NCBI GenBank assembly: GCA_036630325.1
Contig: CP142728.1
Span: 124,001-188,000 of the forward strand
Source: Vairimorpha necatrix
Lineage: Eukaryota
Reading direction: 5' to 3'
DNA: 64,000 nucleotides
Of the stretch, positions 29,312-54,677 are shown piece by piece. The position numbers were made by a program, and so were the translations under genes. The notes under the pieces were generated by a model. That model had not been told where the DNA came from and did no database searches. It worked only from the letters and a program-made list of their open reading frames with translations. The first letter of the stretch is position 1; every line of letters starts with the position of its first letter.

Positions 29312-29465
29312 AATAATTGTTAGAGCTTTTAAAAAACACTTACTTCTTTATATAAGAAGATAATGAGGTCTTAAATTGATCATGTATACAGCGACTTATG
29401 CAATTTTTTTTGTATTTATTTTTTTATGTACCAAAAAAATTTTACAAAATTTATAAAATAACTTT

Positions 29466-29693
29466 TGTGGTATTACAACCACATGTAAAATTCCATTTTC
29501 CCAAAATGGAATTTCTTAAATATTTTTTTTAAAAAATATTATTTTTCGACCCCAACAAAAAGAAAGAAGTAGATGCAGAAAAACAACAATAAACATTTTT
29601 TAAATAATAAACAAACAAGGCCCAAGGAGCCGTTTACAAGTAGTTTGCTAGAGGCCTACTTTCAACGAGGGTTCATCCCTCGTGACCACCTCA
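29466..29693 (+). repeat. 5' LTR
   Basis: TGTGGTATTAC...GACCACCTCA; identical by eye to 33297-33524. Confidence 0.95.
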
Positions 29694-32600
29694 AGTTGAA
29701 TTCAACGAGGAAAACTCATATCAAAGATGAAAAGAAAGAAAAAGAACATACAGAATTTGAAAAAAATATACAAGGAACTGCAGTTAAGAGCAAAGTAAAA
29801 ATTTATAACATTTATGATATTCAACAAGATTTAACCATAAATCAACTCCAAAAATTTGAGATGTTAGCTAAAGCAAATGATTGGAATGACGAACAAATGG
29901 CTTTGATTTACATGGATTGTATACACGATCCAAGAAAAGATTATTTACCATCAGATTCTTATATTGCATTAAGAAAGTCACTGTTGAATTTTATTTATCC
30001 ACCGGAACAAAAAAGACATGCGATACGTGAATTAGATAATACAAGCCAAATAAGTTATTTTAGTATCAAAGAATATAAAGAAACAATCGAGGAAAGACTT
30101 AACAGTTATTCATATTATAATGATCTAAAAAAAAGAGAAGCTCTGCATAAAATGGAAGAAGTATTTTTAAAGGGACTAGGAGATTTCACACATTTAGAAT
30201 TAACAAGACAAAATATGATAAGTAAGGAAATTTATGAAATTTATAATTACCTTGTTCTAATAGAAAATGAAATTTTAACTAAAGTCGAGAAACCCAATAC
30301 CCATTATGAAAAAGAAAATTTTGATTATAACAGAAATACTCAATTTAATAACCCGAAATGGTGCTCACTTCATAAGAGTAACTATACTCATGATACCAGG
30401 CGTTGTTACGCCTTACAGAATAAAAAAAGATTGCCTGAATTTGCAGATCACAAGGATAAAAATATGATTATTAAACAACGTAGCCAATGTCCCGAAGACA
30501 TTACTGTAATAGGAAAAATAGGTAATAAGGATGTGAAAATGCTATTAGATAGCGGATCAAGGAGAAATTATATTACTAAAAGCGCAGTTAATGAATTTAA
30601 TTTAAAGAAAGAAGAATGTGCTAGAATTAAAACCATTTTTGGAAATAATGAAACAGCAGAATCCAATGAAATGGTCAATACTGTTGTTACGATAAAAGAA
30701 AAACCTTTTGAAGTAAAATTTTGCGTTTTAGAAAAATTACCCGTTAATTTTGTTCTAGGGAACGAATTTCTTGACATGCATTGTGCAAAGTTAGATTACG
30801 CCGAAGGAACGGTAGAATTAGATGGACTACGAATTGACATGGTACATAAAGAGGGAAATGCTGAGGAATTGCTAGATAAAGAAATAGTTAATAAATTATG
30901 TCAGGTTAGCGAAAGCGAAGAATTTAATAAACTATTAGACTTCTATATTAAAGAAAACAAAAAATTTACCTCTATGAAAACAAACCTAGCTTCGTTTAAT
31001 GTAATACAACCAGTTTTAAAAACAAAGAAGATTACCTATACAGTTCCATTTAAATATATTGAAAAGGCGAAAATGGAAATTAAAAGACTTTTAGATGCAG
31101 ATATAATTGAAAAGAGTTCTTCTGATATAATAAGCCCTGCATTTTTTATAGAAAAGAAAAATAAAGATTTACGTTTAGTAGTAGATTATAGGGAAGTAAA
31201 TAAAGCTTTACAAGATGACCCATGGATATTGCCCAAAATTGAGGATTGTCTAACAATAATGGGATCTAACAAATTTTTTACGCAGATTGATTTAAGTAAC
31301 GGATTTAACCAGATAAAAATAGATGAACAAAGCAAGAAATATACATCGTTTTTTTTATTAGGACAACAGTGGCAATACAAGAGAATTCCCTTTGGAATTA
31401 AGCCCGGTCCAAAATTATTTCAAAGAAATATTTCAAACATTTTAGGAGATTTCGATAATGTATTTGTTTTCATAGATGATATTGTGATTTATAATAAAAC
31501 AAAAGAAAGTCATTTAATTTCCGTAGAAAAAATACTAGAAACTTTATATAGCAAAAATGTCCAAATAAATTTCGAAAAATCGAAGTTTTTTCAACCAGAA
31601 ATTGAAGTTTTGGGTTACAAAATAAATCACGAAGGAATTTTTCCAAAAACTAATTATTTAAATAATAGAATATTCGAGAAAGAAATAAGAACGAAAAAGG
31701 ATTTACAAAAACTGTTAGGAGTGATAAACTGGTACAGAAAGTTTATTCCAGATCTTTCGATAAGGATTAATAAATTAACAGATATGTTAAAAAACAAGAA
31801 TGAAAATAAAATTAAAATAACGACCGAAATGAGAAAGGAAGTTGACAGAATTAAAGAGTGGATTTTAGGTAATCATATGTTATCATTTCCCGATTACAAT
31901 AGTAAATTTACATTACACGTTGACGCGAGCGAAATAGGTTTAGGAAGTACACTAACACAAAAGGATAAAATCATTAGATATTATAGTAAAAAATTTTCTG
32001 GTCCAGAATTAAATTACAGTATTGTTGAGAAGGAATTTTTGGCAATTGTTTTATCTATGCTCAATTTTAAAAACATAATCCAAGGATCTTATGTAGAGAT
32101 TTATACTGATAGTAAAAATTGTATCTATGAAAATAAAATAGAAACATCAAGAATTAATAGATGGAAATTGTTGTTAAATGAATTTAGTTTTTCACTAAAT
32201 CATATAGATGGTAATAAAAATTGTATGGCAGATAATCTATCAAGAAATTTCATTGGAATCGGAAATAATGAAAACAATAATCACGAAGAAATTATTAAAC
32301 TAAACCAAGAATGTTGTCTCAGAGACAAAAACGGTAACTTTATATTTGATAAAGAAAAGCGCTACATAGTTAAATTTAACCAAGTAAAAAAATTTATATC
32401 ATTTATGCATGAATTTGGACTTCATAGAGGAATTTCTACCCTATATTACAATATAAAGCGCTATTACTATATAAAACGAATCTTTAAAGAAATAAGAAAT
32501 ACCATTAGCAAATGTAAAATTTGTGGAATTTATAAAAATAAGCATCCTAAAAAATATATCACTGGTAATATAGTAGCACAAAGAAAATTTGAAAAGGTAA

Positions 32601-33286
32601 GTACCGATATTTTCGGCCCTTTTAGTCTTGATAATTTTATTACTTCAGAAAGGAAAGAGGTAGGATATATCCTTACCATGACGGATATATATTCCCGATA
32701 TACTAAACTTTATTTCTTATACACTATAAATTCAGACTCGGTGTTAAGATGTTTTGAAAATTGGATTACAACTTTTGGGAAACCAACATCTATAATTTCA
32801 GACAATGGACGCCAGTTTATAAGTAACACAACTAAAGATTATTTAATAAAGGAAAAAATACTACATACCTTGATACCCTCATACACACCAAGCTCTAATG
32901 GTGTATCGGAAGCAATAAATAAAACAATTTCATTCGCCCTGAGCTTCAACAAAGGTTTAAATATACGAGAAGTCGTTATGAAGGCAGAAAATGCGATTAA
33001 TTTCAATTATAATAGAACGATAAAATCTTCTCCATTTTCAATCATTAATGGATTTAATATTTATGACCCATTACAGAGAGATTACAATCATATTAGTGTC
33101 TTAAAAGAAGAAAAAATCTATTTGGTAAAAGTTGGAGACATTTGTAGGGAAAGAATATATAATGCTAAAAAATTAGGACCACAATGGAGCAAGAGGAAGA
33201 AGGTATTATGTGTTGGCAATAAAGGGTACTGGATTAAACTGAAAGGAAATAGTGGATGGACGCATATTAAGAACATTAAACTCTAA
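29573..33286 (+). CDS. Gag-Pol polyprotein (CA-NC-PR-RT-RH-IN)
   Basis: FEMLAKANDW capsid motif, WCSLHKSNYTHDTRRC knuckle, LLDSGS protease, LRLVVDYR/FIDD RT, VDAS RNase H, HHCC and D..SDNG..E integrase in Gypsy order. Confidence 0.95.
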   Translation: MQKNNNKHFLNNKQTRPKEPFTSSLLEAYFQRGFIPRDHLKLNSTRKTHIKDEKKEKEHTEFEKNIQGTAVKSKVKIYNIYDIQQDLTINQLQKFEMLAKANDWNDEQMALIYMDCIHDPRKDYLPSDSYIALRKSLLNFIYPPEQKRHAIRELDNTSQISYFSIKEYKETIEERLNSYSYYNDLKKREALHKMEEVFLKGLGDFTHLELTRQNMISKEIYEIYNYLVLIENEILTKVEKPNTHYEKENFDYNRNTQFNNPKWCSLHKSNYTHDTRRCYALQNKKRLPEFADHKDKNMIIKQRSQCPEDITVIGKIGNKDVKMLLDSGSRRNYITKSAVNEFNLKKEECARIKTIFGNNETAESNEMVNTVVTIKEKPFEVKFCVLEKLPVNFVLGNEFLDMHCAKLDYAEGTVELDGLRIDMVHKEGNAEELLDKEIVNKLCQVSESEEFNKLLDFYIKENKKFTSMKTNLASFNVIQPVLKTKKITYTVPFKYIEKAKMEIKRLLDADIIEKSSSDIISPAFFIEKKNKDLRLVVDYREVNKALQDDPWILPKIEDCLTIMGSNKFFTQIDLSNGFNQIKIDEQSKKYTSFFLLGQQWQYKRIPFGIKPGPKLFQRNISNILGDFDNVFVFIDDIVIYNKTKESHLISVEKILETLYSKNVQINFEKSKFFQPEIEVLGYKINHEGIFPKTNYLNNRIFEKEIRTKKDLQKLLGVINWYRKFIPDLSIRINKLTDMLKNKNENKIKITTEMRKEVDRIKEWILGNHMLSFPDYNSKFTLHVDASEIGLGSTLTQKDKIIRYYSKKFSGPELNYSIVEKEFLAIVLSMLNFKNIIQGSYVEIYTDSKNCIYENKIETSRINRWKLLLNEFSFSLNHIDGNKNCMADNLSRNFIGIGNNENNNHEEIIKLNQECCLRDKNGNFIFDKEKRYIVKFNQVKKFISFMHEFGLHRGISTLYYNIKRYYYIKRIFKEIRNTISKCKICGIYKNKHPKKYITGNIVAQRKFEKVSTDIFGPFSLDNFITSERKEVGYILTMTDIYSRYTKLYFLYTINSDSVLRCFENWITTFGKPTSIISDNGRQFISNTTKDYLIKEKILHTLIPSYTPSSNGVSEAINKTISFALSFNKGLNIREVVMKAENAINFNYNRTIKSSPFSIINGFNIYDPLQRDYNHISVLKEEKIYLVKVGDICRERIYNAKKLGPQWSKRKKVLCVGNKGYWIKLKGNSGWTHIKNIKL

Positions 33287-33296
33287 GGGGGCAGAA

Positions 33297-33524
33297 TGTG
33301 GTATTACAACCACATGTAAAATTCCATTTTCCCAAAATGGAATTTCTTAAATATTTTTTTTAAAAAATATTATTTTTCGACCCCAACAAAAAGAAAGAAG
33401 TAGATGCAGAAAAACAACAATAAACATTTTTTAAATAATAAACAAACAAGGCCCAAGGAGCCGTTTACAAGTAGTTTGCTAGAGGCCTACTTTCAACGAG
33501 GGTTCATCCCTCGTGACCACCTCA
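33297..33524 (+). repeat. 3' LTR
   Basis: Follows the PPT, is identical to the 5' LTR and is followed by the TSD ACTTT. Confidence 0.95.
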
Positions 33525-33699
33525 ACTTTGTATTCTTAAACACAATACAATACAATAATTAATATGAAATGACTTCGAATATTCAATAAAAAACCTCATT
33601 ATATTTAACACATAAATTTTTTTAATAATTATATGCAAATTTTTGCAACAACAAAACAAATTTTAAATTTTTTTTTCATAATTACTTTATTTTATTCCA

Positions 33700-43233: not shown

Positions 43234-43340
43234 AGGAAAAAAACAAAAAAAAACGAAACTTATATTTAAAAATCCAGTAAGTTTATAAAAATTATATTAA
43301 GTCTATGGTAAATTTTTATTACATTCATAAGTCTATAACG

Positions 43341-43540
43341 AATATAAATTAGTTTATAAGTGTAAATAAACAAATGCAAATTAATTTACTACTATGTTTT
43401 TATATAATAAATTTAAATTAGTATATAAATGTAAATAAACAAATTAAACTCACTAATATATTTTATATAATAAATTTAAATTAGTTTATAAATGTAAATA
43501 AACAAATGCAAATTAATTTACTAATATGTTTTTAATAATT
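43341..43540. repeat. ~62-bp AT-rich tandem repeat (about 3 copies)
   Basis: Recurrent taaattagtttataaatgtaaataaacaaatgcaaattaatttacta unit. Confidence 0.75.
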
Positions 43541-43553
43541 AATTTATTTGGTT

Positions 43554-54389: not shown

Positions 54390-54677
54390 TTATATATTTG
54401 TGATGAATTCATCTACCTCCTTAAAAAATTGTACTAAATTTGACTTGTCAATTTCTTCTAAGGAAATCCAAGTCCTTTTTAGTAGAAATTTCACGCAGTT
54501 TTTCTTTAAAAATATGTGCTCATTATTCTTCATGATTTTCCCTTCTAGTTCCCTGTTATAAGTGTCTAGTATTTTAAAGAATATGCTTAATTCTTCATTG
54601 GTCATGTTATTTAAGACTGACGCTTTTATGTCTTCCTTGTTAGAAATTTCAACAATTTCTCTAAATTCTTTAGACAT
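54390..54677 (-). CDS. Hypothetical protein
   Basis: Start MSKEFRE after GACCCTTTTAAAA; 95 aa; no recognised motif. Confidence 0.6.
   Translation of the reverse strand: MSKEFREIVEISNKEDIKASVLNNMTNEELSIFFKILDTYNRELEGKIMKNNEHIFLKKNCVKFLLKRTWISLEEIDKSNLVQFFKEVDEFITNI

Follow-up and report, generated by a model that had tools for sequence, protein, structure and literature searches.

Almost all retroviruses and long terminal repeat (LTR) retrotransposons start DNA synthesis from a host tRNA, and self-priming of the Tf1 type is, to our knowledge, the one well-studied exception. What, then, starts DNA synthesis in a Ty3/Gypsy LTR retrotransposon of 4,059 bp that occupies positions 29466-33524 of a 64,000-nt stretch of Vairimorpha necatrix DNA (GenBank assembly GCA_036630325.1, contig CP142728.1, positions 124,001 to 188,000, read on the forward strand; this whole stretch is called the window below, and all features of the element are on its + strand), and that has no TGG shortly after its 5' LTR? 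We found that the place of the tRNA site is taken by a 12-nt palindrome, in this element and, with other letters, in its relatives. Our preferred answer, which we would put slightly short of an even chance, is that at the unique 5' (U5) end and primer-binding site of this Ty3/Gypsy clade the palindrome replaces the tRNA site, and that a second RNA molecule of the element itself, through its copy of this palindrome, serves as the primer. We hold somewhat more tentatively the broader proposal that the whole clade primes without a host primer, by self-priming in trans, with the dimerisation site serving as the primer site and the bulged boundary bases marking the cut.

The 5' LTR ends in ...CCTCA at position 29693, as an earlier sequence-only reading of this locus had it, and continues directly into AGTTGAATTCAACGAGG; the TGG of a tRNA-type site is absent, there being none for 189 nt, until 29882-84. 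At the primer-binding-site position, there is a perfect 12-nt palindrome, GTTGAATTCAAC (29695-29706), which is in-frame and shows compensatory changes in relatives. The codons TTG AAT TCA within it begin exactly two bases past the terminal CA of the LTR, that is, at the start of a primer site, and TTGAATTCAA is its own reverse complement. The palindrome is flanked by a lower stem, of which the 5' strand is CCTC at 29689-29692, the last LTR bases before the final A (folds; covariation columns 3-6/21-24), and the 3' strand is GAGG at 29707-29710 (folds; word search). In the predicted folds, the two A's at 29693-29694, one closing the LTR and the other forming the 1-nt spacer, are bulged. The sequence-only reading had placed the LTR boundary in a 2-nt bulge; the bulge stands, and a hairpin with a boundary bulge recurs in the relatives, but its position had to be corrected, as the CCTC that pairs with GAGG is 29689-92 and the bulge consists of A29693 and A29694. 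The palindrome had also been noticed in that reading, but as a side feature, whereas it is the conserved core of the site. Where minus-strand synthesis starts determines the U5 edge of an LTR; the primer must therefore pair exactly at the palindrome site. Since the palindrome pairs with its own copy, and the element's own RNA is the only known carrier of it, a second element RNA is the most likely primer.

Both the primer site and the U5 end lie in coding sequence (29693-29707 reads K-L-N-S-T), and the protein alignment provided a lead to the relatives: five of the 15 homologues aligned have L-N-S or L-S-S at this point, as does P0014. Among the other 10 homologues, at least seven begin downstream of the point, and P0012 spans it without the motif; the N-terminus around L-N-S is otherwise poorly conserved. 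The protein alignment also led to G002, a bin of 4 Mb labelled as a Clostridium metagenome-assembled genome, in which there are 38 matches to a eukaryotic Gypsy polyprotein. The contigs with these matches are short and have 37-40% G+C, compared to 25-30% for the bacterial contigs of the bin, which carry tRNA arrays. G002 is contaminated with repeats from a microsporidian-like eukaryote. In four of its elements the 5' LTR end is preserved, and there a perfect palindrome of 12 nt begins one base past CA in every case: ATTGAATTCAAT in L129/L106, GATGAATTCATC in L002, TATGACGTCATA in L090 and GCTGATATCAGC in L092. In three of these four, a terminal inverted repeat with the LTR start is closed by that same CA.

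Five more cases come from the Anncaliia algerae consensus sequences in the supplement File S1 (473 kb) of Parisot et al. 2014 (PMC4202319), as far as that file was accessible. In retroX (...GGACA, T, TATGAATTCATA) and in an unnamed consensus, parts 17-18 (...CTCACA, T, GATGAATTCATC), the 3' LTR ends at the same CA; retro_BB (ACTGAATTCAGT) and the consensus of part 35 (TCTGAATTCAGA) have the same layout, with the LTR end placed by inference. The remaining one, retroC, differs in register, its palindrome being 22 nt long and beginning at the CA itself. Altogether, there are 10 elements with a perfect palindrome at the terminal CA of the LTR: the one in the window, the four from G002 and the five from A. 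algerae. Nine of the 10 share the layout of CA, any base and a 12-mer, in which the letters differ and self-complementarity, including that of the central pair, is intact. In the same A. algerae file, 28 of 43 TGAATTCA words have complementary flanks (21 T..A, 5 A..T, 2 C..G and 0 G..C), with roughly a quarter to a third expected.

Wider searches added little. A scan of genome contigs for the shared LTR-start pattern returned 16 stretches, of which only L139 (the L129 contig) is an element, the others being bacterial. The plain 10-mer occurs at 9 sites in G001 and 6 sites in G002, versus 8 and 3 for the control, and only the C226 site is inside an element. One distant locus was found in viral contigs. 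Among 80 metagenome loci there was no close relative, and tblastn with the gag N-terminus matched L036 only, weakly. It should be noted that GATGAATTCATC is also present at 54402-54413 of the window, at the 3' end of a minus-strand host open reading frame (ORF) with no LTR around it; this occurrence is probably due to chance.

Palindromes of at least 12 nt are not rare as such: there are 65 of them in the window (approximately 1 per kb), which has a G+C content of 22-31%. In the related loci there are 16 in 65,678 nt (0.24 per kb), and five of these are the primer-site palindromes; the chance of such a palindrome starting at a given base is approximately 0.0002 to 0.001. We tested covariation over six palindrome pairs and four lower-stem pairs in five sequences. 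Of the resulting 50 cells, 92% pair, compared to 71.6% in shuffles, and none of 500 shuffles reached 92%; changes on both sides were found in 5 of 10 pairs, and slid controls pair at 20-52%. The sequence-only reading had looked to compensatory changes in related U5 and primer-site regions, and these are present for the palindrome and its flanking stem. The two adjacent central bases (pair 14-15) are always complementary (AT, CG or TA), and so is the next pair outward (13-16). Adjacent central bases cannot pair with each other within one hairpin; thus, their complementarity favours a duplex of two molecules. The predicted two-strand folds have energies of -17.8 to -21.8 kcal/mol, versus -7.3 to -10.7 kcal/mol for the local hairpins. 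The flanking stem (CCUC/GAGG, ACGAC/GUCGU, GAC/GUC and others) varies in sequence and includes G-U pairs, with the last LTR base bulged; the predicted 2-nt bulge is the same in L002, and similar bulges are predicted in L106, L090 and L092.

The distribution of the site follows the phylogeny of the polyproteins. We built a quick maximum-likelihood tree of 33 polyproteins, namely those of the window element, 11 loci, one L002 piece and 20 database proteins; it leaves aside L106 (a contig without reverse transcriptase), the other metagenome loci and the remaining database proteins, and has no Tf1/sushi reference. All rows with palindromes and all L-N-S or L-S-S proteins fall into one clade of 21 of the 33 rows, with a Shimodaira-Hasegawa-like approximate likelihood ratio (SH-aLRT) support of 100, and the named members of this clade are microsporidian. 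Outside it are L095, L097 and L100, which have TGG sites, and four further metagenome elements with TGG sites. LTR pairs were detectable in 29 loci, and at least 18 of these have a TGG site within approximately 10 nt of the LTR. A TGG site that is complementary to tRNA is usual for Ty3/Gypsy elements and is not required for membership, the window element being one without it.

Some of the other primer sites are unusual in their own ways. In L095 (approximately 240-260, oriented), L097 (approximately 240-255, oriented) and L100 (near the start of its ORF), families from the bin that also contains palindrome elements, the TGG site comes right after the CA and overlaps the gag start codon (CA followed by TGGCGAC... 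or by TGGTGGAG...); the TGGCGAC... version resembles the site of DGLT-A, for which, according to the accessible text of PMC5006619, a matching tRNA was not found in Dictyostelium. In L096, the last 9 LTR nucleotides are repeated in inverted form after a single A, so that a 19-nt near-palindrome spans a possible LTR end, approximately 60 nt into the ORF; TGGTGG follows 15 nt beyond it, and both the LTR end and the type of primer are ambiguous. In the accessible part of the A. algerae file, retroA, retroB and retroE form another microsporidian Gypsy group, with LTRs that end in ...ATCCAACC and without a clear tRNA site; right after the LTR they have a hairpin, of which the stem is 5-7 bp long and variable in sequence and the loop, of 4-6 nt, is non-palindromic.

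From the anatomy, position, conservation and covariation of the site, we infer an RNA dimer, a cut in it, the identity of the primer and the later strand transfers. In this scheme, the palindromes of two genomic RNAs packaged together would form a duplex of 12 bp, lengthened at either end by CCUC/GAGG, and the two A's at the LTR boundary would bulge out. A cut in one of the strands, where its palindrome ends on the 3' side and across from the partner's bulge, would give a new 3'-OH, which would be extended across A29694 and A29693 into the U5 and repeat (R) regions of the partner. Several points weigh against this mechanism. Three of the six palindrome pairs are invariant (TGA/TCA), for which, instead of RNA pairing, recognition by a dimeric protein or a constraint on the encoded L/M-x-S could be responsible; the pairs of the 12-mers are all Watson-Crick, which fits DNA as well as RNA. 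The G002 sites were found by looking at the expected place, in a sample that is small and partly selected by eye, and in 6 of the 10 elements the LTR end was placed by the CA and the terminal inverted repeat, with no second LTR. As to the chemistry, a trans primer that is joined to a long 5' RNA fragment would complicate the termination of plus-strand strong-stop DNA, and with cuts in both partners there would be no target left for the second strand transfer.

The most direct alternative keeps everything on one molecule: the palindrome and CCUC/GAGG would form a single hairpin, the RNA would be cut after C29706, its own 3' end would copy U5 and R, and a second, uncut RNA would template the rest. 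The hairpin is indeed a part of the minimum-energy folds of the window element, L106 and L002, its lower stem covaries, and the G-U pairs point to RNA; the true hairpins with non-palindromic loops that follow the LTRs of retroA, retroB and retroE, as given in the accessible A. algerae sequences, fit a fold-back in cis better. However, in the window element the upper stem would have 4 bp only, with a 4-nt loop, and loop bases need no complementarity, whereas complementarity is kept in every case in the pairs 13-16 and 14-15, where two changes are compensated. The fold energy is ordinary, too: for 29640-29730 it is unremarkable (z -1.68), and 14 of 200 shuffles are equally stable. We consider this explanation unlikely.

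Similarly unlikely, in our view, is a palindrome that serves only for dimerisation or packaging and abuts U5 by coincidence, with a host RNA (a tRNA fragment or a small RNA) that pairs with the TGA..TCA core or nearby as the real primer. Dimerisation palindromes are known from retroviral and Ty1 leaders (PMC6844567, PMC8096270) and half-tRNA primers from Copia lineages (PMC6317226), as far as these sources were accessible, and the TGA/TCA core is invariant in 10 of 10 elements, those of the accessible A. algerae file included. However, pairing at the U5 edge would fall on the variable outer part of the palindrome, and symmetric double changes would not be expected with a host tRNA, against which they therefore argue; since there are four different palindromes in bin G002, no single host RNA fits all of them. 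A tRNA-like signal was not found in the LTR or leader either. ARAGORN and Rfam detected no tRNA in the 64-kb window, and a permissive Rfam scan of 29440-29800 gave five matches at the chance level (E 0.46-8.2), none of them tRNA-like, so that a resemblance of the U5 end to a tRNA 3' end was dropped as a candidate. The 115 tRNAs in the fetched loci (24 distinct) are bacterial and not of the host, and loci of eukaryote type contain none of them; the longest complementarity of any of them to 29694-29725 is 7 nt, and the match anchored at the 3' end is at most 2 nt. We also rejected the palindrome as an anticodon arm, with a tRNA 5' half ending at the anticodon as primer, because such an arm predicts a non-palindromic centre of 7 nt and no symmetric covariation.

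A role in double-stranded DNA, as a site just inside the element next to the LTR for a dimeric protein (a host transcription factor or a protein of the element), would account for the invariant TGA/TCA half-sites with varying centre and flanks and for pairs that are strictly Watson-Crick; the variant TGACGTCA is what we take to be a classic bZIP site. We regard this role as improbable, since a transcription-factor site need not stand exactly one base past CA in every family, a primer site is still needed there with nothing else present, and the G-U pairs in the flanking stem point to RNA.

Least probable of all, to the point of being hardly tenable, is the model of the sequence-only reading, in which the LTR segment 29661-29670 pairs with the LTR boundary and GTTGAA, in competition with the downstream copy of the same word, and acts as an internal primer in a variant of the Tf1 scheme. 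Some of its ingredients were confirmed. There are three occurrences of the 10-mer TTCAACGAGG across the 64 kb, at 29661, at 29701 and, within the 3' LTR, at 33492, with 0.02 expected, and none of 100 shuffles reached three; the exact repeat of 29661-29670 at 29701-29710, 40 nt away, is beyond chance, as is the LTR copy itself (2 of 2000 shuffles), and the pairing is possible on paper. Both hairpins that had been named are in the minimum-energy fold of 29640-29730, namely ACGAGGG-UUCAU-CCCUCGU (29665-83) and CCUC-AA-GUUG-AAUU-CAAC-GAGG (29689-29710). The former, ACGAGGG-TTCAT-CCCTCGT in the DNA (also in the centroid fold), lies between the two copies of the 10-mer, like the U5-IR that is needed by Tf1, as described in the accessible part of PMC4600332; L106 has a U5 hairpin of another sequence, at another place in the protein alignment.

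The comparison with relatives speaks differently. The LTR copy is specific to the family in the window: it has no counterpart in any of the four relatives, where the longest words common to the LTR and the downstream word are 4-5 nt, matched by 1434-2000 of 2000 shuffles, nor was one seen by eye in the accessible retroC sequence of A. algerae. This removes the comparative basis of the two-state switch. In five of five elements, the longest LTR words complementary to the site plus 8 nt are 5-7 nt, matched by 446-1967 of 2000 shuffles; with no LTR complementarity beyond chance, priming by an LTR segment, whether internal or Tf1-like, is left without comparative backing, and the Tf1 rule, by which the site is complementary to the mRNA start, fails. 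In addition, the minimum-energy folds choose the downstream pairing, and after a cut behind 29670 the template would retain only 23 nt of U5, without any R, which would make the first strand transfer fail. On the evidence above, priming in trans from a second copy of the palindrome is the explanation that we prefer, at the strength stated at the outset.

The borders of the element, on which the position of the palindrome depends, are well defined. The 5' LTR (29466-29693) and the 3' LTR (33297-33524), repeat family D1, are 228 bp each and identical, starting with TGTGG and ending with CCTCA. The repeat finder reported 232 nt at '100%', but the last four positions include one mismatch (29695 G versus 33526 C), which gives an LTR of 228 bp. 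The target-site duplication ACTTT is present on the left (29461-29465) and on the right (33525-33529). In a contig of the gut-metagenome run X3, window positions 29400-29465 are joined directly to 33530-33552 (23 letters), with a single copy of ACTTT and with two other letters and one gap across 66 nt, which is an unoccupied site. The empty site fixes both LTR ends independently of the LTR comparison, and the insertion is polymorphic or is absent from a close relative. A polypurine tract, AAGGGGGCAGAA (33285-33296), abuts the 3' LTR. As the sequence-only reading had noted, identical LTRs are combined with an intact reading frame, a single gag-pol ORF of 1237 aa (29573-33286) that starts inside the LTR; the element is young, recently inserted and intact. 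The Pfam order on the polyprotein (protease, reverse transcriptase, RNase H, integrase) is that of Gypsy elements, and there is no chromodomain family among 10 Pfam matches (E up to 0.001). The closest proteins are 27-52% identical, and the named ones are from Vairimorpha necatrix, Nosema granulosis and Dictyocoela muelleri.

It is of importance for the priming models where the transcript starts, and the same reading had put this start upstream of the gag ATG at 29573, within the LTR. This agrees with our results. The LTR-encoded N-terminus aligns with homologues, the closest of which, P0002, begins with the same residues MQ; a CCCC motif (29550-53) stands 19 nt upstream of the ATG (29573-75), with an AT-rich stretch before it, a likely border between the unique 3' (U3) region and R. 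A CCC(C) motif just ahead of the ORF ATG is also found in L106, L002, L092 and, in the accessible sequence, A. algerae retroX. According to the accessible part of PMC2803860, microsporidia have a CCC-like motif just upstream of start codons, and E. cuniculi has 5' untranslated regions shorter than 7 nt, with AAUAAA named as the poly(A) signal. Thus, by sequence criteria, the ORF appears genuinely to begin inside the LTR, and the alignment of the N-terminus together with the CCCC motif would place the transcript start approximately 120 nt or more upstream of the LTR end. Two AATAAA words (29588-93 and 29606-11) are candidate poly(A) signals that may end R.

Two observations on copy number and on other repeats should be added. 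In run X2, from a second organism (coded B), and over window positions 29466-29997, the identical LTR has a word depth of approximately 600x, versus approximately 180x for the internal part that is 94% alike, which points to numerous copies, or to solo LTRs, of this family in organism B. No RNA run is among the sequencing runs listed with the element; the contigs from the sequencing runs break at the border between the LTR and the internal part, and no diverged copy spanning the primer site was found among them. Elsewhere in the window, at 43334-43545, there are three head-to-tail copies of an AT-rich unit of approximately 63-69 nt, 69-88% alike (family D2).

In the literature accessible to the search, there was no description of a palindromic primer site in microsporidian Gypsy elements, and in the main text of PMC4202319, the one comparative paper with sequences of such elements, the terms 'PBS' and 'primer binding' occur 0 times. 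Priming without tRNA is already known as such; the mechanism itself would be new if priming in trans were shown. It would then be a second, geometrically different, tRNA-free way of initiation in a Gypsy clade, with a simple sequence rule (CA, one base, a 12-nt palindrome). Such elements would be immune to the silencing of primer sites by tRNA fragments that is described in mammals (PMC7472051, PMC12853362, in the parts accessible to us). There is also a practical consequence, as LTR finders that require a tRNA match will miss or mis-score palindrome families in microsporidian genomes.

How does the site compare to known systems, as far as the accessible parts of the cited papers describe them? 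Tf1, Tf2 and Tj1, and Tf1/sushi elements in general, initiate independently of tRNA from their own RNA, with a U5 hairpin by the site and with an RNA duplex that is cut to give the 3'-OH (PMC4600332, PMC6317226); for Tf1, reverse transcriptase is reported to cut the RNA duplex for the self-primer (PMC4600332). In these respects, by analogy, the window element probably works like Tf1-type initiation. In contrast, the Tf1 primer consists of the first mRNA bases folded back on a non-palindromic site, whereas the site in the window has no LTR complement (as in five of five elements); furthermore, Tf1/sushi elements carry a chromodomain at the integrase C-terminus, whereas none was found among the Pfam matches in the window, where the transcript would start approximately 120 nt or more upstream. 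Skipper, a dictyostelid Gypsy element, has lost the TGG site and has no complementary LTR segment, like the window element, but it has a polypyrimidine stretch in place of the palindrome (PMC5006619). The Copia elements Osser, Bryco and Bianca, which are primed by half-tRNAs, also lack TGG (PMC6317226); however, in these the site corresponds to an inner segment of a tRNA and lacks self-complementarity, whereas the covariation around the window site is symmetric.

The closest described case, in the literature accessible to us, is the Conserved Hairpin Site of GalEa, a clade of fungal Copia elements. It has no tRNA-type site, a palindrome where the 5' LTR ends, a predicted larger hairpin whose bulge or internal loop falls on the LTR junction, and no complementarity to the mRNA 5' end (PMC5445492). 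The two differ in that GalEa belongs to Copia and has a 10-nt palindrome that includes the last LTR A, whereas the window element belongs to Gypsy and its 12 nt begin after CA and one further base, inside the gag frame. In GalEa, a second conserved site, CHSeq2, follows 12-41 nt downstream and pairs with the first one except at a constant A/A mismatch (PMC5445492), whereas a downstream second copy of this kind was found beyond chance in none of five elements. The authors of the GalEa study state that no described model fits its palindromic site (PMC5445492), and priming in trans, if true, would supply a mechanism for it.

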